Shown: positions 3,037 through 60,765 of the stretch, piece after piece
How positions within the stretch are numbered: the first letter of the stretch is position 1
Layout: every line of letters begins with the position of its first letter
Source of the DNA: an uncultured Chitinophaga sp.
GTDB taxonomy: Bacteria; Bacteroidota; Bacteroidia; Chitinophagales; LD1
Assembly: GCA_964631835.1 (NCBI GenBank)
Contig: CAZWAD010000021.1
Location: 271 to 64,270 of the forward strand
Direction: 5' to 3'
Length of the DNA: 64,000 bases
Program-made: the position numbers and the translations under genes
Notes under the pieces: model-generated
Databases searched by the model: none
What the model saw: the letters and a program-made list of their open reading frames with translations, nothing else
Told to the model about the DNA's origin: nothing

Positions 3037-4236
3037 TTACTTCAAAATTTCAGTTACCTGACCGGCACCTACGGTTCTTCCGCCCTCGCGAATCGCAAAG
3101 CGAAGACCTTTTTCCATGGCAATGGGGTAAATAAGCTTGGTGGTAAGTGTTACGTTATCACCGGGCATTACCATTTCAACGCCTGCCGGAAGAGTGATTT
3201 CACCGGTAACGTCAGTAGTGCGGAAATAGAACTGCGGGCGGTACTGGTTGAAGAAAGGAGTGTGACGTCCGCCTTCTTCTTTGTTCAATACGTAAACCTC
3301 GCATTTGAATTCAGTATGCGGAGTTACCGAGCCGGGTTTGCAAACCACCATGCCGCGCTTGATTTGCTCCTTCTCGATACCGCGCAGCAGAAGCCCTACG
3401 TTGTCGCCTGCTTCGCCACGGTCAAGAATTTTGCGGAACATTTCCACACCGGTTACAGTAGATGTTTGAGCTTTTTCGCCCTCTTTCTGCAAGCCGATAA
3501 TTTCAACCGGGTCGTTGGAGTTGATTACTCCTCTTTCAATACGTCCTGTAGCCACAGTTCCGCGGCCGGTAATAGAGAAAACATCCTCAACCGGCATCAG
3601 GAAAGGCTTGTCAACATCGCGGGGAGGAACCGGAATCCAGCTATCAACGGCATCCATCAAATCTTCAATAGCTTTTACACCGGCAGGGTCGCCATTCAAA
3701 CCGCCCAGGGCAGAACCTTTGATGATAGGAATGTTTGCGCCATCGAATTTGTAGAAAGTAAGCAGGTCGCGGATTTCCATTTCGCCCAGTTCAAGAAACT
3801 CGGGGTCGTCAACCAGGTCAACTTTATTCATGAACACCACAATTTGAGGAACACCTACCTGGCGTGCCAAAAGAATGTGCTCGCGGGTTTGCGGCATAGG
3901 ACCATCGGTAGCAGCTACCACCAGTATAGCTCCGTCCATTTGCGCGGCACCTGTAACCATGTTTTTGATATAGTCAGCGTGGCCGGGGCAGTCAACGTGG
4001 GCATAGTGGCGGTTAGCCGTAGCATATTCCACGTGAGCGGTATTAATGGTAATACCTCTTTCTTTTTCCTCGGGGGCGTTATCAATCGAAGAGTAATCGC
4101 GCACCTCGGCAAGTCCTTTCTTTGAAAGCACCGTTGTAATAGCGGCAGTCAAAGTTGTTTTACCGTGGTCAACGTGACCTATAGTTCCGATGTTTACGTG
4201 CGGCTTGTCCTTAATAAATTTTTCTTTAGTAGCCAT
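3037..4236 (-). CDS. tuf: Translation elongation factor Tu
   Basis: 399-aa ORF with [18 protein letters not shown] and NKVD G-domain motifs. The sequence is EF-Tu-like over its full length. Confidence 0.98.
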
Positions 4237-4327
4237 TGTTACTGGTTTTAATTGAGTGTTTAATGTTTATTGAATTGTTTACTGTTTACTTTTTAAAAAA
4301 TACAAATCTTAATTCCAAAATATCCTG

Positions 4328-4399
<72 letters not shown>

Positions 4400-4436
4400 T
4401 TGTTAAGAAGCGGACTCATCAACCTCTTAATTTCTG

Positions 4437-4509
4437 AGCGGGAGACGAGGCTCGAACCCGCGACCTACAGCTTGGAAGGCTGTCGCTCTACCAACTGAGC
4501 TACTCCCGC
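4437..4509 (-). tRNA. tRNA-Gly (anticodon TCC)
   Basis: Acceptor GCGGGAG/CTCCCGC, D arm GCTC-AGTTGGTA-GAGC, anticodon loop CTTCCAA, T loop TTCGAGC. Confidence 0.9.
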
Positions 4510-4552
4510 AAATTATTCTGCCTCTGTATTATTCCCACCCGAAAATTAAGTG

Positions 4553-4635
4553 TGGGGAGATCAGGATTCGAACCTGAGAACTCGTAAGAGGACAGATTTA
4601 CAGTCTGTTGTCGTTGGCCACTTGACTATCTCCCC
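4553..4635 (-). tRNA. tRNA-Tyr (anticodon GTA), long variable arm
   Basis: Acceptor GGGGAGA/TCTCCCC, anticodon arm ACAGA-CTGTAAA-TCTGT, perfect T arm TCAGG-TTCGAAT-CCTGA. Confidence 0.92.
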
Positions 4636-4726
4636 CTTTAATTTTTAAAGGCGAATCTTCAAAGAACACTTCTCATCTTCTTCCGCTTTGCCTTCAACAG
4701 GTAATAAACCGGAAGACATCTGTTTG

Positions 4727-4799
4727 AGCCCGAGGATGGATTCGAACCTCCGACCTGCTGATTACAAATCAGCTGCTCTACCAACTGAGCTACTCGGGC
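4727..4799 (-). tRNA. tRNA-Thr (anticodon TGT)
   Basis: Acceptor GCCCGAG/CTCGGGC, anticodon arm GCTGA-TTTGTAA-TCAGC, T loop TTCGAAT. The T stem has one A-A mismatch. It is the first gene of the Thr-Tyr-Gly-Thr-tuf unit. Confidence 0.88.
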
Positions 4800-9940: not shown

Positions 9941-12900
9941 CTATTCGCGGCATTTTAAAATCATCCCTCCTGCGTTGCCCGGCTTGGAGTGAAGCACTTT
10001 CGACATCAGGGGCTTTTTCCTTTTCAACTCATTCCGGTCGTTTGCCACATCGCCATCATAAATGTCAATGCGGAGTGTATTTAGCCCGTATTTGCCTTTG
10101 TTCCATGCTTTGGAAATAATGTAGTTTTCGCCACCTGAGTCTAAAACTAAAATCCTTTTAATCATCCCTTTTTCGGGAATGTGAATCATGTCGCGGTTTA
10201 CAATTACTTGTCCGTTGAAGATAATGGAGACCGTGTCATTATCTTCTTCCCCATCATCATAAATAAATGCGGTAACTAAACAACTGCTTATTTCTGCCTT
10301 ATGTTCGTAGCTTACTGAATCGGTTCCGAGGCTCAATGCTTCATCTATTTTTTCGGGCACTACGATTGGCTCACTGAAAACATCGTTTTTGATAATTACA
10401 CTATAGGTACACATTTGATAATTTCCCGATGGGTCAACCGCTCTGTATATAAAAGGATGAACGCCCACCTGTAGGAAGCATCCGCTCTTGGAGCCAACCA
10501 CCTGAATAAAACTGTCAATACCGCAGTTGTCGCGCACAGCCGGTTCGCGGTAATAGTAAACAATCCCTCTTCGGGTCACGGGTAAATGAATGGTGGTGTC
10601 TGCCGGGCAGTTATTGAACACCGGTGCCTCTTTATCTTTCGGGCAGGGCTTATGTGCCGATTTGTAGTTCTTCAGCGGAACGGCATCGGGCTTCATGTCT
10701 GCCGGTATGTTTTCGACCGGTATGGGAACCACCGGTGGGGGAGTTTTTTTCTTTTCCTCTTTTACCGGTTCGGGTTTCTTTTCTTTTCCGGCTGAGGGTG
10801 GAAAAAAAGGCTTCTCCGCTTCTTCCTTTTTTTCCTTGAACTCAGGGTTTTCTGCCGGTTTGTTTTCAGCGGGTTCCTTTTGCCTTGTTTCTTTTACTAC
10901 CGGTTGCTCAGGTAACTTCTTCTCCTCCGCCTTAGCTACTGCCGGCTGGACAGGTTTATCCGGCTGTTCAGTCTCCTTTACAACCGGTGGTTCTGGTGCC
11001 TTTTTCTCTTCGGTTTTTGGTCCAGCCGGTTTTCCCTTTATCTCAGGCTTTACTTCAGCGGTCTTTGTTGCAGTAACTGTTTTCTCTTCCTTTTTCATTT
11101 CAAGCGGGGGTGGCGCAGGCTTCTGAACTTCTTTTATAGCCTCTTTTACTTCCTCTTTTTTTACCACCACCGGAACCGGCTGTGCTTGTTCTTTCTCCTC
11201 TTGCTTTACTACCGGCAGCGGTTCAATTTTTTCCGGTTGTTTCGGCTTTTCTTCTTCCACAGTTATTATAAAACTGCACACACCCTTGTTGCCTGAAGCA
11301 TCTTGAGCCTCGTGCGTCACCACGGTAACGCCCACCGGAAAATCGCTACCACTCTTTAAACCTGAAACTAATTTAACGGGGAGCCCGATTCCATCGTCAT
11401 AAGCTACAGGAAGTACATAATTCAAAGGTGTTGATTTTTGTCCTGCCGGGGTTATGGCTTTAATATCAGCAGGGCAGGTGAGCACCGGTGAGGTGGTGTC
11501 GAGCACGGTAACCTTGAAGCTGCAAACGGTTTTGCCTGCAATGGAATCGTTCCATTCATATTCTATTTCAGTAACACCGATAGGAAACATGGAGCCGCTT
11601 GAAAGCCCTTTGGTGCGCGTCATGCGGATGGTTGTGCCTCTTATTTTCAAAAGCGGTTCATTGTAATTTACAGCAATATTGTATTTGCCGGGAGGAGAGT
11701 AAGCTACCTGGTCGTTGGTGCAGTGGTAAATGGTTTTGATGGTTTCTTTCAGGATTATTCTGATGCTGCATTCGGCTTTGTTGCCGGAGGCATCAGTGGC
11801 GATATACTGCACCATGGTATTGCCCACCGGAAACTCACCACCGCTCGGAGGACCAGATACCCGTTCCACCTTTACACCGGGGCAGTTATCGGTGGCAACC
11901 GGTATGGGGTAGTTTACGATGCCTGAGTTTTCGCCCTCGGGTGCACGCATGGTTACATCAGGCGGGCACTGAAACACGGGCGCCTGCTTATCGCTGATGG
12001 TTACGAAGAAACTGTCCACTACTTTTTTGCCGGTGGAGGTGGTAGCTTCGTAAGCAATTACATTTTTACCCGCATCGAACAGCGAGCCGCTGGGCAATCC
12101 TTTGATTTGTTTCAATTCGGTTTTCCCGCAGCCGGTAGTAACTGCAGGTTCGGCAAAAGCCACCACCGCAGAGCACTGTCCGGCATCGGCATTTTTCTGA
12201 ATATCATCGGGAAAGGTGATGGAAACTTGCTCACCGATCTTACCGGTTTGGTCATTGAACAGGTCTGTAATTTCGCTGAAGGACAAGCCCCTGCGGAAAA
12301 CGAATACATCGTCAAGACTGCCGCGGAAATATTTACCGGTGCTCAAATCGCGCCCTAATTCAAGCGCCAGGTTGTTTGCGGGCAGGGGCCTCATGCTTAC
12401 CCCTTGGCAAATTAACTGGTTGTTGAGGTACACGTAAACAAAGGTTCCATCGAGGGTGATGGCGAGGAAATACCACTTGTTGAACTCAATGGGGTGGGAG
12501 AGGTAAGATGGGTCCTGTACCCAAAAGTCGCTGCTCAGAAAAATATCGGCATAGCTGTTACCAAATGTTTTTTTGAGGCTGAGGCAGTATTGCGCTTTGG
12601 CACCGGTACCGGTTTCGGAGCCGGCTTTTGAAATAAGCGGAAGGGTTAAGTTGCTGCTGCCGGAGGGGTCTTTTTCGGCTTTGAACCAGGCGGCCAGGGT
12701 GATGGAGAAGGTTATGGCTTGCAGGCCGGTGGCGTTAGGCACCGAAACATAACCCGTGGTGCCATCGAAACGGAGGGCACCGCAGGCATTGCCGAAGCGG
12801 TCTTCGGCTATGGTAACTCCGCCTTTCACTACACCGTGGTTGCTACCGGTCTTATCGGCAGCGTTGCCGTTGAGCGGATAATGAGCCGCCAGCCCACCGG

Positions 12901-12985
12901 AGGGAGCCTGAGCCACCGGTTCTAATGCATGTAAAAAAAGAAAGGCCGCTGTTAAGTATCGTAACAAGTATTGCGCAGTTTTCAA
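9941..12985 (-). CDS. Large secreted LamG/HYR-domain protein with K/E/P-rich spacer
   Basis: Contains a concanavalin/LamG-like region (LSFSEITDLF context) and several HYR-like repeats (CPPDVTMRAPEGENSGIVNYPIPVATDNCPGV...). A low-complexity KEP linker of about 185 aa follows. The proposed TTG start at 12985 gives the signal peptide MKTAQYLLRYLTAAFLFLHALEPVAQA. The ATG of the ORF track (13186) adds 67 aa that look non-native. Confidence 0.8.
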   Translation of the reverse strand: MKTAQYLLRYLTAAFLFLHALEPVAQAPSGGLAAHYPLNGNAADKTGSNHGVVKGGVTIAEDRFGNACGALRFDGTTGYVSVPNATGLQAITFSITLAAWFKAEKDPSGSSNLTLPLISKAGSETGTGAKAQYCLSLKKTFGNSYADIFLSSDFWVQDPSYLSHPIEFNKWYFLAITLDGTFVYVYLNNQLICQGVSMRPLPANNLALELGRDLSTGKYFRGSLDDVFVFRRGLSFSEITDLFNDQTGKIGEQVSITFPDDIQKNADAGQCSAVVAFAEPAVTTGCGKTELKQIKGLPSGSLFDAGKNVIAYEATTSTGKKVVDSFFVTISDKQAPVFQCPPDVTMRAPEGENSGIVNYPIPVATDNCPGVKVERVSGPPSGGEFPVGNTMVQYIATDASGNKAECSIRIILKETIKTIYHCTNDQVAYSPPGKYNIAVNYNEPLLKIRGTTIRMTRTKGLSSGSMFPIGVTEIEYEWNDSIAGKTVCSFKVTVLDTTSPVLTCPADIKAITPAGQKSTPLNYVLPVAYDDGIGLPVKLVSGLKSGSDFPVGVTVVTHEAQDASGNKGVCSFIITVEEEKPKQPEKIEPLPVVKQEEKEQAQPVPVVVKKEEVKEAIKEVQKPAPPPLEMKKEEKTVTATKTAEVKPEIKGKPAGPKTEEKKAPEPPVVKETEQPDKPVQPAVAKAEEKKLPEQPVVKETRQKEPAENKPAENPEFKEKKEEAEKPFFPPSAGKEKKPEPVKEEKKKTPPPVVPIPVENIPADMKPDAVPLKNYKSAHKPCPKDKEAPVFNNCPADTTIHLPVTRRGIVYYYREPAVRDNCGIDSFIQVVGSKSGCFLQVGVHPFIYRAVDPSGNYQMCTYSVIIKNDVFSEPIVVPEKIDEALSLGTDSVSYEHKAEISSCLVTAFIYDDGEEDNDTVSIIFNGQVIVNRDMIHIPEKGMIKRILVLDSGGENYIISKAWNKGKYGLNTLRIDIYDGDVANDRNELKRKKPLMSKVLHSKPGNAGGMILKCRE

Positions 12986-13366
12986 GTGGGTAAACTTAAT
13001 ATATAACGCAGTTTTATGCCCCGGGTTTTTACTTACAATAGCCGCTTTGTATAATATGTAAGACGTTGGAGTGGAGTTTATCCTCACAAGTGCTGAGCAG
13101 GAGGACGCTGTCACCCTAAGCCTGCGGGAGCGTGAATGCAAGATGCTTCTTCTCCGTTCAGCAAAAAAGGAAAGGCACTGGCACATTGAACTTGTCGAAA
13201 TGTTATAATGGATGAATATAAGATGCTTTGGCTACGCTTTGCTCCGCTTAACTTGGCATGGGGCAAAAAATGAAGATTGCTGCAAGAACAAGAGCATACA
13301 TCTGCTAAAAAAACTTTTAGCATTCAACCCGCCATAGTGGGTTTATTATAAAAGAAAAGGGAGCGG

Positions 13367-18733: not shown

Positions 18734-20152
18734 ATGAAAAGCCTTTCTTCTGAACTTGTTCATCCGGTTTTTGAAATTGTTTCTGATGTAGCAGCCGAGT
18801 TAGATTACGAAACTTATGTTGTGGGAGGTTATGTGCGCGACTTGCTGCTTAAAAGAGACTGCAAAGACCTGGATTTTGTTTGTGTTGGTAGCGGAACGGA
18901 ACTTGCGGCAAGAGTTGCGGCAAAAATCGGAGGCAATATACATGTAAACTATTTTAAAAACTTCGGCACTGCCCAGTTTAAGTGGAACGAACTGGATTTG
19001 GAATTTGTGGGAGCCCGGAAGGAATCATATCAACGTCATTCACGAAAACCGGTTGTTGAAGACGGCACTTTGGAAGACGACCAAAACCGGAGGGATTTTA
19101 CTATCAACGCGCTTGCAGTCTCTCTCAACAAAAAATCGTTTGGCAGGTTAGTTGACCCGTTTAACGGGGTAAAAGATTTAGCTGACAAAATCATACGCAC
19201 GCCACAAAAGCCCGATATCACCTTCAGCGATGACCCTTTAAGGATGATGAGGGCTATCCGCTTTGCCACTCAACTTAACTTTCAGATTTTACCTGAAACA
19301 TTTGAGGCAATTAAAAACAATAAAGAGAGAATTAAAATTATTTCACAAGAGAGAATCACTGATGAACTGAACAAAATAATTCTGAGCCCTAAACCGAGCA
19401 CCGGGTTTATCCTTTTGGAACAATCCGGATTACTTGGAATTATTTTTCCTGAATTTCAGAAACTGAAAGGAGTTGAAAATTATGAAGGCAAGGGACACAA
19501 GGACAATTTCTATCATACACTTCAAGTTTTAGATAACCTGACCAAAACATCCAATGATTTATGGTTGCGATGGGCTGCTGTGCTTCATGATATTGCCAAG
19601 CCACCGACAAAAAAATTTGTTGAAGGACAAGGCTGGACTTTTCACGGACACGAAGTGCTGGGAAGCAAATGGGTGCCGAAAATATTTGCACGAATGAAAT
19701 TGCCAATGGGCAGCGAAATGAAGTTTGTGCGCAAAATGGTGTTCCTTCATTTGCGTCCCATCGCATTAACCAAAGAAGAAATAACCGATTCGGCTTTGCG
19801 CAGGCTGCTATTTGAAGCAGGTGATGATATTGAAAACCTGTTGATGTTGTGTGAAGCCGATATTACCTCAAAAAACAGGGAGAAAGTAAAACGCTACCTC
19901 GCCAAATTTGAGTTGGTACGCGAAAAACTTAAAGAGGTGGAAGAAAAAGACCGTATTCGCAACTTTCAGCCACCGGTTACCGGTGAGTTGATTATGCAAA
20001 CCTTTGGCATTGGTCCTTCACGTGAAATAGGTATCATCAAAGAGGAAATCAAAGAAGCTATCCTCGAAGGTAAAATCAGGAATGATTATGACGAAGCTTT
20101 TCAGATGATGCTGCGTTTGGGTGAGAAGTTGGGATTGAAAAAGGAGGTTTGA
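18734..20152 (+). CDS. CCA-adding tRNA nucleotidyltransferase / poly(A) polymerase-family protein with HD domain
   Basis: VVGGYVRDLLL...DLDFV nucleotidyltransferase head, RDFTINA motif and an HD region (LHDIAKP). Confidence 0.82.
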   Translation: MKSLSSELVHPVFEIVSDVAAELDYETYVVGGYVRDLLLKRDCKDLDFVCVGSGTELAARVAAKIGGNIHVNYFKNFGTAQFKWNELDLEFVGARKESYQRHSRKPVVEDGTLEDDQNRRDFTINALAVSLNKKSFGRLVDPFNGVKDLADKIIRTPQKPDITFSDDPLRMMRAIRFATQLNFQILPETFEAIKNNKERIKIISQERITDELNKIILSPKPSTGFILLEQSGLLGIIFPEFQKLKGVENYEGKGHKDNFYHTLQVLDNLTKTSNDLWLRWAAVLHDIAKPPTKKFVEGQGWTFHGHEVLGSKWVPKIFARMKLPMGSEMKFVRKMVFLHLRPIALTKEEITDSALRRLLFEAGDDIENLLMLCEADITSKNREKVKRYLAKFELVREKLKEVEEKDRIRNFQPPVTGELIMQTFGIGPSREIGIIKEEIKEAILEGKIRNDYDEAFQMMLRLGEKLGLKKEV

Positions 20153-21093
20153 TGAGTTTTAATCCTAAATTCCTGGTCGTCATTTGCGGGCCGACCGCAG
20201 TCGGCAAGACTTCACTTGCAATTGAGGCGGCTAAAAAATTTGAAGCAGAAATCATATCTGCTGATTCCAGACAGTTTTATAAAGAGCTCAATATCGGAAC
20301 GGCTAAACCCGATAAAAAGCAATTGAAAGAAGTAAAGCATCACTTCATCAGCAATATCTCCATTCACACTAAAAATTACAGCGCAGGGAAGTATGAAGCC
20401 GAAGTGCTTGAATTCCTGGAGAAGTATTTCAGGAAGAAAAATGTTGCAGTTCTTGTGGGCGGCTCAGGGTTGTTTATCAATGCAGTTTGCAGCGGCTTTG
20501 ATAAGTTTGAAAAAACAGACGATAACCAGCTCTACATCACCCGGAAATTTCTGAACGAAAAAAACATCAATTGGCTACAAGATGAATTGGGGCGATTAGA
20601 CCCTGAGTATTTTGCAGAAGTTGACAAAAACAATCCGGTTCGCCTGAAGCGGGCTCTTGAAATTATTTACACCACCGGTAAAAAATATTCCGAGCAGCGG
20701 ATTGGAAAAAAAACGGAGAGGCCATTCCACATCATCAAAATCGGATTGAGCCTGCCGCGCGAAATACTTTACGAGCGTATCAATCACCGGGTTGATGAAA
20801 TGATGAAAACCGGTTTGCTTGAAGAAGCTAAACAGCTTTACCTCCACAAAAAACTTCCAGCCCTTAACACCGTGGGTTACACCGAGCTATTTGATTTTAT
20901 AGAAGACAAGATTTCTCTGAAAGACGCTATTGCCCTCATAAAACAAAACACCCGCAACTATGCCAAACGGCAAATGACATGGTTTAAAAAAGATGGAGGC
21001 ATTAAATGGTTTGAACCTTCTCAACAGAAGGAAGTCCTGAATTACATTAGGTCACAGATTTTTGTGCAGGTAAAAGAGAATGATTTGGATTAA
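20149..21093 (+). CDS. miaA: tRNA dimethylallyltransferase
   Basis: GPTAVGKTSLAIE P-loop, ISADSRQFYKELNIGTAKP and NYAKRQMTWFKK motifs. Confidence 0.93.
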   Translation: MMSFNPKFLVVICGPTAVGKTSLAIEAAKKFEAEIISADSRQFYKELNIGTAKPDKKQLKEVKHHFISNISIHTKNYSAGKYEAEVLEFLEKYFRKKNVAVLVGGSGLFINAVCSGFDKFEKTDDNQLYITRKFLNEKNINWLQDELGRLDPEYFAEVDKNNPVRLKRALEIIYTTGKKYSEQRIGKKTERPFHIIKIGLSLPREILYERINHRVDEMMKTGLLEEAKQLYLHKKLPALNTVGYTELFDFIEDKISLKDAIALIKQNTRNYAKRQMTWFKKDGGIKWFEPSQQKEVLNYIRSQIFVQVKENDLD

Positions 21094-21252
21094 TCTGAAG
21101 CCTGTTCAAAAGTCAATATTCTATTCTTTACAGGTAACAGATACGTGCAAACATCCCCTATATAACGCGCATTTGTTGCGTAAAAGTTGAACATCAGATA
21201 CCAATTATCAAATAAATCGGTCTGCATCCATTAACGTCTGACTTCTTTCAGG

Positions 21253-21279
21253 CAATTGCCAAAAAATCTGTTTTTACGC
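21253..21279. repeat. Left copy of a 27/28-nt direct repeat flanking array D (CAATTGCCAAAAAATCTGTTTTTACGC)
   Basis: Matches 21846-21873 with one substitution and one single-base indel. Confidence 0.85.
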
Positions 21280-21375
21280 TTCTTTTCGCAAAACTAAGGA
21301 TAAATAAACCACAAGTTCCCGCATCCGCTAAAAGCGCAAGAGAGAACTCGAAGCACTTTAAACACAAATTTTTGC

Positions 21376-21711
21376 GAAATGTCTACGATACGAAGAAAAC
21401 AGTCTATGTTACCATCTATCGAGTCTATGTTACATGCTGAAATGCCTTGAACAGCATCTGTCATGGACATGTTCGATGCTATCATGTCTATTACAGATTG
21501 AATCGTGTCTATTTCATTTCGAAAGCAAGGCTCGATAGCAAGTGTTTTGTCTGTGTCAGATTCTATCGTGTCTGTTTCACTTCGAATCATGTCTACTCCA
21601 CTTCGTAACATGCCTGTGTTTGATGGTAACATGCCTATGATTCTTCGTGATGTGGACTCGTTTCGTGCTGGAATAGACATGTTGGAGAAAAGTGTGTTAA
21701 AGTTGCTGAAA
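21376..21711. repeat. Array D: 15-16 degenerate tandem units of exactly 21 nt (consensus about ATCRTGTCTRTTTCAYTTCGA)
   Basis: The core G(T/C)CT recurs at 21381 + 21k for k = 0..14 with no indels, as listed in the findings. Confidence 0.85.
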
Positions 21712-21841
21712 AGTGAGCACAAATGAGGTTTTCGGCTAATCACCCCCAAATGTTTTGAGGTAATATTCGAATGCATGCAGTCTTTTTGCCCCGCTTTTGT
21801 GGTAATCAGATAACCTGAGGTATCGTTTCTTAAATCACCGG

Positions 21842-21873
21842 TTTACAATTGCTCAAAAAATCTATTTTTACGC
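21842..21873 (+). promoter_or_regulatory. Right copy of the direct repeat, which is also the candidate promoter of the DUF2723 gene
   Basis: TTTA-(17 nt)-TATTTTTA approximates the -33/-7 consensus. The -7 box ends 20 nt before the ATG at 21890. Confidence 0.4.
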
Positions 21874-21889
21874 ACCTCAAAATCGCGCA

Positions 21890-24800
21890 ATGCAGAAATA
21901 TAAATTGCTCAACAACATCTTCGGATGGCTCTCCTTTGTTTTCGCTGCAATAGTTTATACCATGACCATGGAAAGCAGCGGAAGTTTCTGGGACTGTGGC
22001 GAGTTTGTTTCGGGGTGTCTTAAACTTCAGGTAGTTCACCCACCGGGCGCGCCATTTTTCCTGATGCTCGGTAGAATATTTACTCTCTTTTCCGGCTGGG
22101 ATCCCATGGTAAACGGAAGTGGTGCTCATGTGGCGCAAACGGTCAACTTTATGAGCGGTCTTGCTACTGCCGGGGCTGTGCTTTTTACTTTCTGGACAAC
22201 TACGGCTCTCGCCCGTAAATTTGTTTTCAGCGATGGCAATTATACCAATGGAAAAATTGTTACCGTTATCGGTGCAGGTTTACTCGCAGCAGGCGCATGC
22301 ACTTTCCTGGATTCACTTTGGTTCAGTGCTGTTGAAGGGGAAGTATATGCCTTATCTCAATTCTTCCTTTCACTGATTGTTTGGGCAATTTTGAAATGGG
22401 AAGCCGATGAAAGCAAATATGCCGACCATTGGCTGGTGTTCATTGCGTATATGACCGGTCTTTCCATTGGGGTTCACTTGCTCAGTTTGCTTGCGCTTCC
22501 GGCAATTGCGCTTATGTATTATTTCAAAAGATTTAAGAATACTACTCATACGGGATGGTTTTTGGCGGTAATGGCGGGTTTTGCAGCGCTGGGAATTTAT
22601 ATGAAATATATTATATCCTTCACCCAGTCGTACCTGGCGGGAATGGATTTGTATTTTGTAAACACCCTGCACTTTGGCTTTAACTCCGGAATTGTATTTG
22701 CGGTTATTACACTTATTGCATTGCTGGTTTCTATTTTGTGGTACACCCATACCGGCAAAGACCGCGACTTTTATATTGCCCTGGGAGTTGCTGTATTTTA
22801 TGTGGTGATAGATGTAATTATAACCGATAGCTGGACAGCGCGCTTTATCCGTCTTTTTTTTATTGCCGGATTATTCATGGCTCGGGAATACGGATACGAA
22901 GCAAGGCGTCTGCTGAATGTGACAATCCTTGCGCTTGCATTTTCTTATATCGGCTACCTTTCTTATGTTATGGTTCCCATTCGGGCAATTGCCAACCCGC
23001 CCATTAACATGAACCGCCCCGATGACCCGCTGAAAATAAAATCGTATGTTGACCGCGAGCAATATGGCGACCGTCCTTTGCTCAAAGGTCCGGATTATAC
23101 GGTTACTTCTTACGACATTGAAGATTACATTAAAACCAAACGCTGGGTAAAAGATGAGAAAGCCGGTCGCTATGTGGATGGTGGCGATAAGATTGATTAC
23201 AAGTTCCGCGATAATGTGCCTATGATGTGGTTTCCTCGTTTAGGTTTCTGGCAGGAAGAGGAAAAACATCCGGGTTACCGGGCGTGGTTGAATCCTGACC
23301 ATTATATTATTGACCGGGCAAATAATAATTCTATTGAAAGAACATTCCCTGCAGGTACGCTGGATGAAGCAAGAAAATATGTTGCTGAACTAAACCGGAA
23401 TCAGCCTAACCGGTACTATGTAAAAGATGCTATTACATTTAAAGACAACCTGCGCTATTTTTTCAAATACCAGGTAGGTTATATGTACTTCCGATATTTC
23501 ATGTGGAACTTTGCCGGCAGGCAAAATGACATTCAGGGAACATACGGTAATGATGACGGAAGATGGATTTGCGGGATTCCTTTTATTGACAATATGCATG
23601 CTTTCTTCACTCCCGACTGGCCGCAGGAAAACCTTCCGAAAAGCGCATTGGAAAACAAAGCGCGAAATAAGTTTTACCTGATTCCGCTCATCCTGGGACT
23701 CATCGGGCTCATTTATACTTTGTTTAAGGACGAAAAGACTTTCTTTTTTGTTCTGGTACTTTTTGGCACTACAGGGTTGTTGCAGATTGTTTATCAAAAC
23801 GAACCTCCAATTGAACCACGGGAGCGTGATTATGCACAGGCGGGTTCTTTTGTTGCATTTACCATCTGGCTTGGTTTTTCTTTAGTGGCCATTGTTGATT
23901 TGCTGAAGAATAAACTCCGCCTGCCCGAGTTTCCTGCGGCAGCGGGAGCGTTAATTCTTTGCCTGTCAGCTCCTGTATTAATGGGAACTCAAGGCTGGAA
24001 CGACCACACCCGCCATAATCGCTATACCGCACGCGATTTTGCAATAAGCTATCTGGAATCATGCGCCCCCAACGCTGTGATATTTACTCAGGGCGATAAT
24101 GATACTTATCCCCTTTGGTACGCGCAGGAAGTTGAAGGAGTGCGAACCGATATTCGAATCATTAATTTGTCGCTTCTTGGTGTGGATTGGTACATTGACC
24201 AGTTGCGTTATAAAATGAATGATGCTCCCGCACTCAAACTAACTTTTAGCCCCGAACAACTAAGAGGAGAAAGGCGCAATGCTGTTCGTTTTAAAAACGA
24301 CCCCCGTATTCCCCAAGGTGAATTCAGGAATCTGAAAGACATCATGCATTTTGTGGCGAGTGAAGACGACCGCGATAAAACCATTCTTTATCAGGGAGGA
24401 GAATTGGAGAACTACATTCCTACGCGCAATTTTTCAATTGAACTGGATGTAAATAAAGTGCGGGAGATGAACATGGTTTCGAAAGAAGAAGATTCGCTGA
24501 TTATCCCCAAAATGGAGTGGACACTTAACCGGGGCGTTCTGCTGAAAAATGATTTAGTGTCGTTGGATATTGTGGCGAACAACATCATGGAGCGCCCAAT
24601 TTACTTTGCTGTTTCGGTTGGTCCCGAAGCCTATCTCGGCATGGAGAAATTTTTCCAGCTTGAAGGATTAACCTACCGTATTGTTCCGAAAATAAATCCG
24701 GGTGGTTCACCCTACAGCGCTCCTCCGCGAACTGATGTTATGTTTGATAACATGCTGAAGAAATTCCGTTTTGGCGGCATCGCAGAGAATCCGAAAATTT

Positions 24801-25300
24801 ATCTGGATGAAAATGTTTTGCGCATGACAGTGAATATTCGCGGGAACTTTGGAAGGCTGGCACTTGAACTTCTCAAAAAAGGAGAGAAAGAAAAAGCTGC
24901 AGAAGTAATTGACTATGCGCTGAAGGTATTACCGCCTTCGCAGGTTCCCCATTCAGTATTTAATTATTCGTATCCCAAAGTTTATTACGAGGCAGGGCAA
25001 ATAGAAAAAGCGCGTAAGCTTTTGAACGAAATGCTCGCCAAATCAAAAAACGAGCTTGACTATTATAAAACGGTTTACAATTACACCTTAGCCCAGGCAA
25101 GAGATGCCGGTGACCGGGCTTATGCAGCTCAATTGGAACAAGGTGCTTTTACCGAGCGCAGAGATGTGCAGGAGGAACTTTACATTATGCAGGAACTTAC
25201 TCTGGCTTCGAAGCAGTTTGACGACTCTACATTTGCAGCAGGTGTAGAAAAGACATTTATGGATTACCGGATGTCGTTTGTTCAAATGCCGAAACAATAA
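21890..25300 (+). CDS. DUF2723-family polytopic membrane protein (GT-C-like, putative glycosyltransferase) with C-terminal helical-repeat domain
   Basis: 1136 aa. The N-terminus WDCGEFVSGCLKLQVVHPPGAPFFLMLGRIF is characteristic of DUF2723/TMEM260-like proteins. There are many TM helices and a soluble C-terminal domain. Confidence 0.82.
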   Translation: MQKYKLLNNIFGWLSFVFAAIVYTMTMESSGSFWDCGEFVSGCLKLQVVHPPGAPFFLMLGRIFTLFSGWDPMVNGSGAHVAQTVNFMSGLATAGAVLFTFWTTTALARKFVFSDGNYTNGKIVTVIGAGLLAAGACTFLDSLWFSAVEGEVYALSQFFLSLIVWAILKWEADESKYADHWLVFIAYMTGLSIGVHLLSLLALPAIALMYYFKRFKNTTHTGWFLAVMAGFAALGIYMKYIISFTQSYLAGMDLYFVNTLHFGFNSGIVFAVITLIALLVSILWYTHTGKDRDFYIALGVAVFYVVIDVIITDSWTARFIRLFFIAGLFMAREYGYEARRLLNVTILALAFSYIGYLSYVMVPIRAIANPPINMNRPDDPLKIKSYVDREQYGDRPLLKGPDYTVTSYDIEDYIKTKRWVKDEKAGRYVDGGDKIDYKFRDNVPMMWFPRLGFWQEEEKHPGYRAWLNPDHYIIDRANNNSIERTFPAGTLDEARKYVAELNRNQPNRYYVKDAITFKDNLRYFFKYQVGYMYFRYFMWNFAGRQNDIQGTYGNDDGRWICGIPFIDNMHAFFTPDWPQENLPKSALENKARNKFYLIPLILGLIGLIYTLFKDEKTFFFVLVLFGTTGLLQIVYQNEPPIEPRERDYAQAGSFVAFTIWLGFSLVAIVDLLKNKLRLPEFPAAAGALILCLSAPVLMGTQGWNDHTRHNRYTARDFAISYLESCAPNAVIFTQGDNDTYPLWYAQEVEGVRTDIRIINLSLLGVDWYIDQLRYKMNDAPALKLTFSPEQLRGERRNAVRFKNDPRIPQGEFRNLKDIMHFVASEDDRDKTILYQGGELENYIPTRNFSIELDVNKVREMNMVSKEEDSLIIPKMEWTLNRGVLLKNDLVSLDIVANNIMERPIYFAVSVGPEAYLGMEKFFQLEGLTYRIVPKINPGGSPYSAPPRTDVMFDNMLKKFRFGGIAENPKIYLDENVLRMTVNIRGNFGRLALELLKKGEKEKAAEVIDYALKVLPPSQVPHSVFNYSYPKVYYEAGQIEKARKLLNEMLAKSKNELDYYKTVYNYTLAQARDAGDRAYAAQLEQGAFTERRDVQEELYIMQELTLASKQFDDSTFAAGVEKTFMDYRMSFVQMPKQ

Positions 25301-38165: not shown

Positions 38166-38390
38166 TTAGTTCTGTTTTGGGGGAACTATACGCAGCTTAC
38201 CGTTGAAACCGTTGGCAAGCTTGAGCAATTTAGGCAGTTTTGGAGTTTTAACTCCTTTTTCAATATTGCAAATATCTGAGCGGTCAACGCCCGATGCAGC
38301 TTCCAGGTCGCCTAACGACATATGGAAGCTTTCCCTTAATTCTTTAAGGTGGAGGCAAAACTCGCTGTGTAGAACCTGTTCTTTTTTCAT
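38166..38390 (-). CDS. XRE-family helix-turn-helix transcriptional regulator (74 aa)
   Basis: LKELRESFHMSLGDLEAASGVDRSDICNIEKG matches the Cro/C1 HTH pattern. Confidence 0.8.
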   Translation of the reverse strand: MKKEQVLHSEFCLHLKELRESFHMSLGDLEAASGVDRSDICNIEKGVKTPKLPKLLKLANGFNGKLRIVPPKQN

Positions 38391-38561: not shown

Positions 38562-38813
38562 GAACTCCCGAGGGCTTCTGCAACACGTAACAAACCACAA
38601 CCGGAACTCCCGAGGGCTTCTGCAACGTGTAACAAACCTCAACCGGAACTCCCGAGGGCTTCTGCAACGCGTAACAAACCTCAACCGGAACTCCCGAGGG
38701 CTTCTGCAACGCGTAACAAACCCCAACCGGAACTTCCGAGGGCTTCTGCAACACGTAACAACCCCCAACCGGAACAGCGGAGGGCTTCTGTAACAGGTAA
38801 CAAACCAATTTTT
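38562..38813. repeat. Array B: 6 tandem units of exactly 42 nt (GAACTCCCGAGGGCTTCTGCAACGCGTAACAAACCTCAACCG)
   Basis: Units start at 38562, 38604, 38646, 38688, 38730 and 38772. Units 1-5 are about 90% or more identical and unit 6 is degenerate. The array ends 22 nt before the ATG at 38836. Confidence 0.92.
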
Positions 38814-38835: not shown

Positions 38836-40038
38836 ATGCCAAAACGTAAACTACCCCGTACCGATGAAGAGCGCGACACCGCACTTCGCACAGCCAAGAA
38901 CCGCAAAGATGCAGTTCCGCCTCCGCTCATTATTCCTTATACCGGAGCTACCATCACGCGGCTCGACACTTTTCAGCCCGCATACCGCACCAAGTACCTG
39001 GCGGTAGCTTCAGCCAAGAACGCCCAAACCGCGCTAACGGAACAAGTGTTAGAAGCCAAGCAGCAAGCCACTTATTATATTCTTGATTTTATAGATGCGC
39101 TCAACCGCGCCATACGCAGAAAACAGTTTTTGCCTTCGGTTCGCGCCTTGTATAATATTGATGTGAATGACGACCGCGCACCTGAAATAGATAATGAAGC
39201 CGATGTAACCACCTGGGGCGAAAACATTGATGCCGGTGAAACCACCCGCATTGCTGCCGGTGGAGCGCCCATTACTTTTCCATCGCTGGCGCAGGTAAAT
39301 ACCGCAGTAGGCAATTTCAATACGCTGAACGCCCAGCAAAGCAACGCGAAAGAAGCCTATGACATAGCCCAGGAAGCACTGGCTGCCGATAACCCCGAAG
39401 CCGATAAACTAATTCTGAAGCTGTGGAACGAAACCGAAACTGCTTTTGACGAAGGCAACAAGAGCAGTATGAGGCGCAAAGCCCGCGAATGGGGGGTGGT
39501 TTATACCATTGCTTCGGGCGAAGTGCTCAGCCCCGAAGAGTTTTCGATTACCGGTAAAATATCCCTGTCGGTTCCGGGCGCACCAGTACCGGTTGCCGAT
39601 GCGGTGATTACTGTGCTGGAAACAGGCGAGTCGGTACTCAGCCAAAGCAATGGCAACTACTTTATTACCGTGCTGCCTGCCGGAACCTACACACTGGTAG
39701 TGGATAAGGTGGGGTACACCTCTCAAACCATCAATAATGTAGCAGTTGTTGAAGGAGAGATAACTACGGTTAACGTTCAATTAGTAACAGCCGCCAGCAA
39801 CGGAAGCATAGTAGGCACGGTTACCCTGGGCGGCAATCCGGCATCGGCTACGGTAAGCATTGACGGCACCACATTCAGCACCAACACCGCCTTTACGGGC
39901 GTTTATACCATCGAAAATATACCGGCAGGAAACATAACGGTGCGCGCAACCATTATTGCCGACCCGGTAAATTTTCAAACACAAAATGTAACCGTGGTTG
40001 CCGGTGTGGCCACCGAAGTAAATTTCAGCTTCCCGTAA
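38836..40038 (+). CDS. Hypothetical protein (orphan N-terminal region plus two CarboxypepD_reg-like beta-sandwich domains), no signal peptide
   Basis: 400 aa with a basic N-terminus (MPKRKLPRTDEERD). The C-terminal segments GNYFITVLPAGTYTLVVDKVGYTSQT and GVYTIENIPAGNITVRA resemble carboxypeptidase-regulatory-like domains. Confidence 0.72.
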   Translation: MPKRKLPRTDEERDTALRTAKNRKDAVPPPLIIPYTGATITRLDTFQPAYRTKYLAVASAKNAQTALTEQVLEAKQQATYYILDFIDALNRAIRRKQFLPSVRALYNIDVNDDRAPEIDNEADVTTWGENIDAGETTRIAAGGAPITFPSLAQVNTAVGNFNTLNAQQSNAKEAYDIAQEALAADNPEADKLILKLWNETETAFDEGNKSSMRRKAREWGVVYTIASGEVLSPEEFSITGKISLSVPGAPVPVADAVITVLETGESVLSQSNGNYFITVLPAGTYTLVVDKVGYTSQTINNVAVVEGEITTVNVQLVTAASNGSIVGTVTLGGNPASATVSIDGTTFSTNTAFTGVYTIENIPAGNITVRATIIADPVNFQTQNVTVVAGVATEVNFSFP

Positions 40039-60360: not shown

Positions 60361-60633
60361 TCTTGTCTGTAACTATTGATTTGTTGACTGTAACTATTAG
60401 TTTGTTGTCTGTTAGGTATGATTTGTTGTCTGTAAGCATTAAGTTGTTGTCCGGCAGATGTAAATTGTTATCTGTTAGATATGAATTGTTGTTCGTTAGA
60501 TACGTTTTGTTGTCTGTTATTATCTAATTGTTGCTCGTTAGATATAATTTGTTGGCTGTAAGTATTGATTTGTTGTCTGTAAGATGTAAGTTGTTGTCTG
60601 TAAGATTTAAATTGTTTGGTTTCAGGGTTAGTT
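60361..60633. repeat. Array C: 13 tandem units of exactly 21 nt (consensus TGTTGTCTGTAAGATNTAAKT)
   Basis: Units start at 60361 + 21k for k = 0..12 with no indels, and 11 of 13 begin TGTT. The array lies in the convergent intergenic region between ruvB and the FemAB-like gene. Confidence 0.9.
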
Positions 60634-60765
60634 TTTTTGGTTGTTTTGTAAGTTTTACTCCATAAAATGGCAGTTTTTGTGGTAAAAGCATTCATTTTTG
60701 ATAAAAAGAGGGTAAAAGCTGGACTCTATGTACCAGATTCGTGTAAAAGGGATGGGATAAATAAG

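Follow-up and report, generated by a model that had tools for sequence, protein, structure and literature searches.

A phased array of 21-bp units within a gene-less insert upstream of a GT-C glycosyltransferase gene in an uncultured Chitinophaga sp.

The interval between miaA and the GT-C gene

The window analyzed in this study is the whole stretch of 64,000 nucleotides from an uncultured Chitinophaga sp. Within it, an array of related 21-bp units, named array D (21376-21711), is located in the 796-bp gap (21094-21889) between miaA and a gene encoding a GT-C-fold membrane glycosyltransferase. The miaA gene (20149-21093, plus strand; tRNA dimethylallyltransferase, Pfam IPPT, E 8e-75) is the last gene of a block that is syntenic with relatives. 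The GT-C gene (21890-25300, plus strand; DUF2723 or TMEM260-like, Pfam PF11028, E 4e-61) starts directly after the gap, and its homologues align from residue 1. An open reading frame of 160 aa, ORF160 (21294-21776), runs across the array on the minus strand. The positions of the array, the gap and the ORF all agree with an earlier, sequence-only reading of this DNA. The neighbours of array D are housekeeping genes, namely lpxA, cca, miaA, GT-C, SpoU and PMT_2, and neither a cognate Rep/Par gene nor a plasmid or phage context adjoins it. Searches of 72,556 plasmids and of phages by blastn with array D gave no match, and the single match to a viral contig was dismissed as a chance peptide match without periodicity. 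Elsewhere in the window, four tRNA genes on the minus strand (4328-4799) adjoin tuf (3037-4236) in an ordinary chromosomal context, and the GC skew climbs over the entire window without a turning point.

All five relatives compared (L001-L004 and L081, proteins 65-75% identical) have the motif CCAAAAAATCTATTTTTACGCC about 20 nt ahead of the GT-C ATG, and it probably represents the GT-C promoter, with a -7-like box TATTTTTA, together with the leader. The native copy in the window is CAATTGCTCAAAAAATCTATTTTTACGC (21846-21873, plus strand). A direct repeat of it, CAATTGCCAAAAAATCTGTTTTTACGC, is present upstream of the array (21253-21279, plus strand), 593-594 bp away. Over 27-28 nt the two differ by a single substitution and a 1-nt indel, and the -7-like box of the upstream copy reads TGTTTTTA in place of TATTTTTA. 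The promoter motif is itself an imperfect palindrome, GCCAAAAAA-TCTG-TTTTTACGC.

The two promoter copies bracket a 566-bp gene-less insert that holds array D. It consists of a non-repetitive left flank (21280-21375), part of which (21330-21375) recurs in the second copy of the element described below, the array, and a right flank (21684-21845) without similarity to GT-C or to the locus of any relative by blastn and tblastx. The insert as a whole likewise had no match to GT-C or to any of the fetched loci with these two programs, and this lack of similarity to GT-C ruled out a tandem duplication of the GT-C 5' region as its origin. A direct duplication of host sequence on both sides, here the 27-bp promoter motif, is what an inserted element would leave. 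No terminal inverted repeats were found at the insert ends, and no recombinase or transposase gene is encoded within it; the nearest tyrosine recombinase lies 15 kb away and looks like a housekeeping Xer.

Relatives were compared on both sides of the gap, with amino-acid identities of 65-75% for GT-C and 79-83% for miaA (L083-L086). None of them has an array after miaA or before GT-C, and their GT-C upstream regions show no 21-nt periodicity. The GT-C relatives carry other genes upstream of GT-C. In the miaA relatives (e.g., L083, L084 and L086) the gene order is cca-miaA-MFS-metallophosphatase-transketolase, and the MFS block is absent from the 64-kb window, so that synteny breaks directly after miaA (21094). 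The relatives that possess the GT-C promoter motif, all of them distant, lack the insert. The sequence-only reading had counted the lack of an array at orthologous loci against its interpretation. Formally, the array is indeed missing there; however, the genomes compared are only distantly related and lack synteny across the miaA/GT-C junction, so the absence denotes a lineage-specific array rather than an unreal one. Array D thus appears to be lineage-specific and to lie in an insert at a synteny break.

Phase, orientation and symmetry of the units

The self-match of array D is 0.492 at a lag of 21 nt, 0.439 at 42 and 0.462 at 63, and about 0.25 at other lags. The best value over all lags in first-order Markov shuffles (n=5000) was 0.327 +/- 0.013 on average and never exceeded 0.397, which places the observed value at z ~12. 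Fourier power is concentrated on harmonics of 21 (periods 4.2, 2.1, 7.0, 3.0, 10.4 and 21.2). The window has five occurrences of the spaced motif TGTCT-N16-TGTCT, where 0.08 would be expected, and three of them are within array D. Autocorrelation, shuffles and Fourier analysis therefore bear out the earlier claim that a 21-nt phase is kept despite strong sequence drift. A 7-nt sub-period is absent (lag-7 match 0.23), for which reason a link of array D to the heptamer-repeat literature was dropped.

The nine clearest units gave a leave-one-out weight matrix with which the register was further examined. Units 1-7 (21376-21522, plus strand; consensus AACATGTCTATGTTACATCGT) and units 9-13 (21544-21648, plus strand) score best at shift 0, the latter being the best-conserved block in both the weight matrix and the identity matrix, which gives 12 forward units. 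Unit 8 (21523-21543) scores -12.8 bits at shift 0, reaches a positive score at no shift, and has 3-10 of 21 positions in common with the other units; it is a gap with the length of exactly one 21-nt unit. Units 14-16 are not forward units according to the same matrix, and the strict core G[TC]CT[AG] is present at 10 of the 15 core positions claimed before. The earlier count of 15 units is thus retained for the 12 forward units in register and was inflated by unit 8 and by units 14 and 15. Pairwise identity between units averages 9.2/21 (44%) and ranges from 19/21 (units 7 and 10) down to random, with units 4 and 8 looking random in the identity matrix. Block duplication is indicated by units 6-7 and 9-10, which lie 63 nt apart and have 82% identity over 39 nt. 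TRF detects the stretch 21544-21648 only, as 2.5 copies.

Scanning with the reverse-complement matrix revealed two full-length inverted units, one embedded among the first forward units (21453-21473) and the other at the end of the array (21663-21683), each with 18.3 bits against a background maximum of 13.5 bits elsewhere in the window. A weak inverted unit of 5.0 bits (21642-21662) directly precedes the latter, so that a weak and a strong inverted unit occupy 21642-21683 on the minus strand with their core centres in phase with the forward units. All three inverted units are at offset 14, which keeps the core centres in the 21-bp phase. Units 5, 14 and 15 are recognisable only through these inverted copies, and three inverted cores among the five non-canonical units have a chance of ~1e-6. 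The inverted core of unit 15 had already been noticed; AATAGACATG is the exact reverse complement of CATGTCTATT. Array D is accordingly a mosaic of about 12 forward and two to three inverted units, rather than 15 drifted direct units.

The unit consensus AACAT-GTCT-ATGTT is dyad-symmetric, with a self-reverse-complement score of 0.396 against a null of 0.325 +/- 0.017 (reached in 0 of 2000 column shuffles). Covariation of the arms within units was not found, the number of Watson-Crick pairs being 29 of 75 against 35.3 +/- 3.7 expected from column composition. A dyad consensus whose arms do not covary denotes degenerate half-sites and not hairpins, and array D does not behave as a hairpin-forming repeat of the REP-like or RNA stem-loop kind, as its arms are not kept complementary. 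Nor does it behave as a slippage-born VNTR or minisatellite, given the mean identity of 44% and the two embedded full inverted units. Sites of the AACAT-N4-ATGTT type are not enriched elsewhere in the window (53 matches, 50 expected), which ruled out a regulon of such single sites. The bracketing promoter duplication, the inversion of whole units and the dyad symmetry of the unit go beyond what had been noted on this DNA before.

The window contains further repeats. Array E (60363-60700), between the convergent 3' ends of ruvB (plus strand) and a FemAB-like gene (minus strand), also has a 21-nt period, with 12 good units (TTGTCTGTAAGATATAATTTG) and about four degenerate ones; it is T/G-rich (C 8%), has no dyad symmetry, and shows weak bracketing repeats (60172-60190/60695-60713 and 60293-60310/60812-60829). 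A binding motif shared by arrays D and E was ruled out, since their units are not similar overall (P 0.77) and have TGTCT alone in common. A 42-nt array of 5.9 copies with 92% identity (38562-38807, GAACTCCCGAGGGCTTCTGCAACACGTAACAAACCACAACCG) is located between divergent genes for a 74-aa XRE-type HTH protein (38166-38390, minus strand) and a 400-aa CarboxypepD_reg protein (38836-40038, plus strand) and resembles a regulatory or operator array; the coding score of a 135-aa ORF that spans it is -0.22. An intergenic repeat of 41 nt and 3.5 copies (1565-1707, TATAACGTAAAACACC...) lies upstream of the gene 1918-2904, and a 42-nt periodicity at 10798-11118, within the gene of a 1081-aa protein on the minus strand (9941-13186), presumably reflects a 14-residue protein repeat.

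The minus-strand ORF, a second copy and arrays in other contigs

ORF160 is almost certainly spurious. Scored by a 3-periodic Markov model that was trained on 35 genes of the window (leave-one-out), it has -0.14 bits/codon, below every one of these genes (+0.03 to +0.29). Conservation is highest in its wobble columns (mean information 0.86 bits) and lowest at second codon positions (0.56), whereas selection on a protein would give the reverse. Permutations that kept column composition gave a chance of P 0.14 that this frame stays open, and of P 0.26 that at least one of the six does. The alternative that the sequence-only reading had set against a non-coding array, a real heptad-repeat (coiled-coil) protein of the pattern x-(I/V)-D-x-I-x-S, could draw on the ORF being open along the entire array, on its heptad-like spacing of hydrophobic a/d residues, and on weak similarity by HMMER to genuine SNVDxLx heptad repeats of tail-fibre-like proteins (E 4e-8 to 2e-4, 24-33% identity). 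These matches look compositional. A word-indexed search found no homologue of ORF160, a signal peptide or other domain was not found, and the HMMER search of 1.8 billion representatives returned one close match, the 55-aa protein P0121. With coding score, codon-column conservation, chance openness and homology search all failing to support it, such a protein is highly improbable.

P0121 (NCBI, from a contig of 156,227 bp) is 69% identical to residues 98-149 of ORF160, which correspond to window positions ~21330-21485. Evidently, P0121 was predicted from a second copy of the array D DNA, colinear with the first unit by unit, and its length of 55 aa indicates that the long ORF was not kept there. 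Its contig has no close miaA or GT-C and is probably from the same genome. Units 2 and 3 of the second copy are nearer to the consensus, which suggests that those of the window have drifted.

A second spurious protein covers a similar array in another contig. P0127, a 'protein' of 230 aa, was called over an array of 14 units of 21 bp in a JGI contig of 58% GC (L082, 4794-5594). Its unit GACTT-AATC-AAGTC (GACTTAATCAAGTCAGAGACG) forms a dyad of 5+4+5 (P 0.001). Two copies of a 51-nt direct repeat, 86% identical and 750 bp apart, enclose the array, as do AAAAATCGCC motifs on either side of it. The contig is unrelated to the window and has the same layout as array D. P0121 and P0127 also caution against the 'heptad-repeat proteins' that gene callers report from such arrays. 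A Bacteroidia MAG (L013, 211-525) has about 15 degenerate phased 21-bp units with a TGCA-N4-TGCA dyad, and in another locus (L029, 3162-3420) a non-coding array of 63 nt (3 x 21) adjoins two adjacent ORFs (3517-3741 and 3768-4757). Judging by ORF sequence alone, we take the latter two to be a disrupted IS256-family transposase gene, and an ORF about 1 kb from the L013 array (1563-2315) to be a REP-associated (Y1) transposase. Non-coding arrays in other Bacteroidota loci have periods from 13 to 66 nt, and a general preference for multiples of 21 nt is thus unsupported.

Array D, the L082 array and perhaps the L013 array might belong to an undescribed class of gene-less, array-bearing insertions of 0.55-0.75 kb in unrelated bacterial phyla, a grouping that we regard as unlikely. 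Members of such a class would carry some 14-16 phase-locked, dyad-symmetric 21-bp docking sites in mixed orientation, bracketed by target duplications of 27-51 bp, and would install a nucleoprotein 'landing pad' by host promoters or gene ends. The shared layout of 21-bp phase, dyad unit, mixed orientation and long target duplications would suggest a recurrent and undescribed way of building or moving arrays.

Interpretation and comparison with known systems

We tentatively read array D, with somewhat less than even confidence, as a set of phased sites on double-stranded DNA for a putative dimeric protein. About 14 related 21-bp units on duplex DNA would each provide one weakly dyad-symmetric site AACAT-GTCT-ATGTT, with site centres 21 bp, or two helical turns, apart in either unit orientation. 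Because this spacing holds regardless of orientation, all sites would face the same side of the helix. A dimeric sequence-specific protein would occupy the individually weak sites cooperatively and form a nucleoprotein filament ~135-500 bp upstream of the GT-C start codon, which may modulate the GT-C promoter (motif 21846-21873) or the local DNA structure. The array would have arrived within the 566-bp insert, and the duplication of 27 bp of the GT-C promoter by that insert points to a lineage-specific and probably mobile or dispersed element. We infer protein binding, cooperativity, any effect on GT-C and mobility alike from the features of the DNA described above.

The simplest explanation of exact two-turn spacing, indifference to orientation and a dyad consensus without pairing is a symmetric dimer that recognises duplex DNA. 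Twelve forward units stand at shift 0 without an indel despite the low mean identity between them. Replication slippage cannot make full inverted units in phase, and these score well above background. Orientation would matter to an RNA or a protein and not to a symmetric dimer. The array also directly precedes a promoter motif kept by five relatives, and the L082 array, with its 14 units, dyad and 51-nt bracket, and the L013 array would be independent analogues. On the other side, a cognate protein was not found among the neighbouring genes, the array is missing from every relative found, the individual sites are weak and one unit is unrecognisable, and units 2 and 3 of the window have drifted from the consensus relative to the second copy. 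The neighbouring array E, dyad-less and sharing TGTCT alone, leaves a common binding protein for both arrays unsupported. Quasi-palindrome loop inversion could flip cores without selection, and it explains whole inverted units less well. Confidence in the dimer reading is thus limited by the lack of a known partner and of conservation, by the weakness of single sites, and by the possibility of a selfish or neutral relic. The non-coding, protein-binding or regulatory role implied by the sequence-only reading is partly upheld and is the best supported one here.

The main rival, which we consider rather unlikely though a serious one, is that array D is a functionless relic, a decaying minisatellite-bearing dispersed or mobile element inserted in the GT-C promoter region, whose 21-bp phase was inherited from in-register block duplications and not kept by selection. 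The bracketed insert at a synteny break, its absence from all relatives, and the colinear second copy elsewhere would all be expected of such an element. So would the block duplication seen between units 6-7 and 9-10, the random-looking units 4 and 8, the drift of the window copy relative to the second one, and the occurrence of non-coding arrays of many periods (13-66 nt) in other Bacteroidota loci. However, the 12 forward units have no net indel at ~0.5 substitutions per site from the consensus, where neutral decay should have added several, as we judge from typical bacterial indel-to-substitution ratios. The whole inverted units exactly in phase and the dyad-symmetric consensus are likewise difficult for a relic, terminal inverted repeats and a transposase were not found, and the same layout in the unrelated L082 contig suggests a recurrent, organised element. 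Both readings, binding and relic, could hold together where a mobile element carries a docking array of its own.

It is improbable that array D acts instead as a non-coding RNA or long 5' leader on the plus strand, transcribed from the promoter copy at 21253-21279 or by read-through from miaA, with AUGUCU-type repeats that titrate an RNA-binding protein or small RNA. In favour of this reading, that duplicated promoter motif precedes the array by 97 nt, prediction gave no terminator behind miaA, and the fold of the plus strand is slightly more stable than that of shuffles (-102 kcal/mol, z -2.2; minus strand, z -1.0). A whole inverted unit, however, would be a different motif in RNA, and a sponge RNA does not require strict phase. 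The arms do not covary, and the Rfam 15 covariance models gave no match to array D at the gathering score and only noise up to E 10. The sole promoter box facing the array is the duplicated GT-C motif, in which TA is mutated to TG; TA is present in all six GT-C promoter copies, those of the five relatives and the native one. TAnnTTTG boxes were found neither facing the array nor in its units, and with sigma-70-like matches at chance level an array of promoters was also ruled out; ECF-type -35/-10 spacing, judged by eye, did not fit. A further and very remote explanation makes the context of the array an artefact, though not the array, the miaA/array/GT-C junction being an assembly chimera at a dispersed repeat. 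Synteny does break exactly at the repeat-bearing region, a second copy of the element exists, and the source looks like a draft assembly (65,176-bp contig). The second copy, at ~69% amino-acid identity, is nevertheless too diverged to mislead an assembler, and the duplicated GT-C promoter is coherent with a real insertion beside GT-C.

If the dimer-binding reading is correct, the array would recruit a filament of a regulator before a gene for a conserved envelope glycosyltransferase, in a Chitinophagales-like lineage of which few members have been sampled. Even if array D is only a decaying insert, it still marks a genome rearrangement.

Among known systems, array D can be regarded as a variant of tandem protein-site arrays or of minisatellites. 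VNTR/MIRU minisatellites and TAACTGA heptamer arrays, the latter described from Beggiatoaceae, Cyanobacteria and Bacteroidetes (PMC4679880), are like array D intergenic and head-to-tail, located near gene starts, patchy in phylogeny and of unknown origin. Their units, however, are near-identical, all point the same way and recur every 7 or 40-100 nt, whereas those of array D have diverged strongly, include embedded inverted ones and share a dyad consensus. Clusters of REP/BIME elements, which accompany RAYT transposases, resemble array D in being short, partly palindromic, intergenic, clustered and of mixed orientation; REPs differ in their GC-rich paired stems and hundreds of genomic copies, the arms of array D being 5 bp, AT-rich and without covariation. 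The RNA repeats of type III toxin-antitoxin systems (ToxI-like) also form a tandem non-coding array directly upstream of a gene, but they consist of near-identical 36-40-nt units in a single orientation, with a terminator and a ToxN-type toxin gene, none of which applies to array D.

At the ptx promoter of Bordetella, BvgA~P sites are reportedly spaced by 22 bp and taken up by about six dimers. This array resembles array D in its many weak sites upstream of a promoter, on one helix face and about two turns apart. A published account (PMC7250471) describes binding of BvgA dimers to the ptx promoter via multiple weak interactions. The ptx array has a known regulator and is conserved across strains, whereas array D, with ~14 units, has no known regulator, is lineage-specific and lies within an insert.

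Iterons and partition centromeres of plasmids are tandem units at whole helical turns, direct or inverted, as array D is. Iterons of R6K are seven units of 22 bp, sopC of F has 12 units of 43 bp with an inverted repeat in each, parC of pSK41 has four units of 20 bp, and the heptad arrays of omega proteins contain units in both orientations. Units of ~17-22 bp in helical phase were likewise found in array D, the inverted ones included. One dimer site per unit and cooperative occupancy characterize these systems and are only proposed for array D. It differs from them in its chromosomal position among housekeeping genes, in lacking a nearby rep/par gene, an AT-rich unwinding element and DnaA boxes, and in having far more units that are far more degenerate. 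If array D is a true binding platform, it would represent a chromosomal counterpart of plasmid iterons and centromeres.
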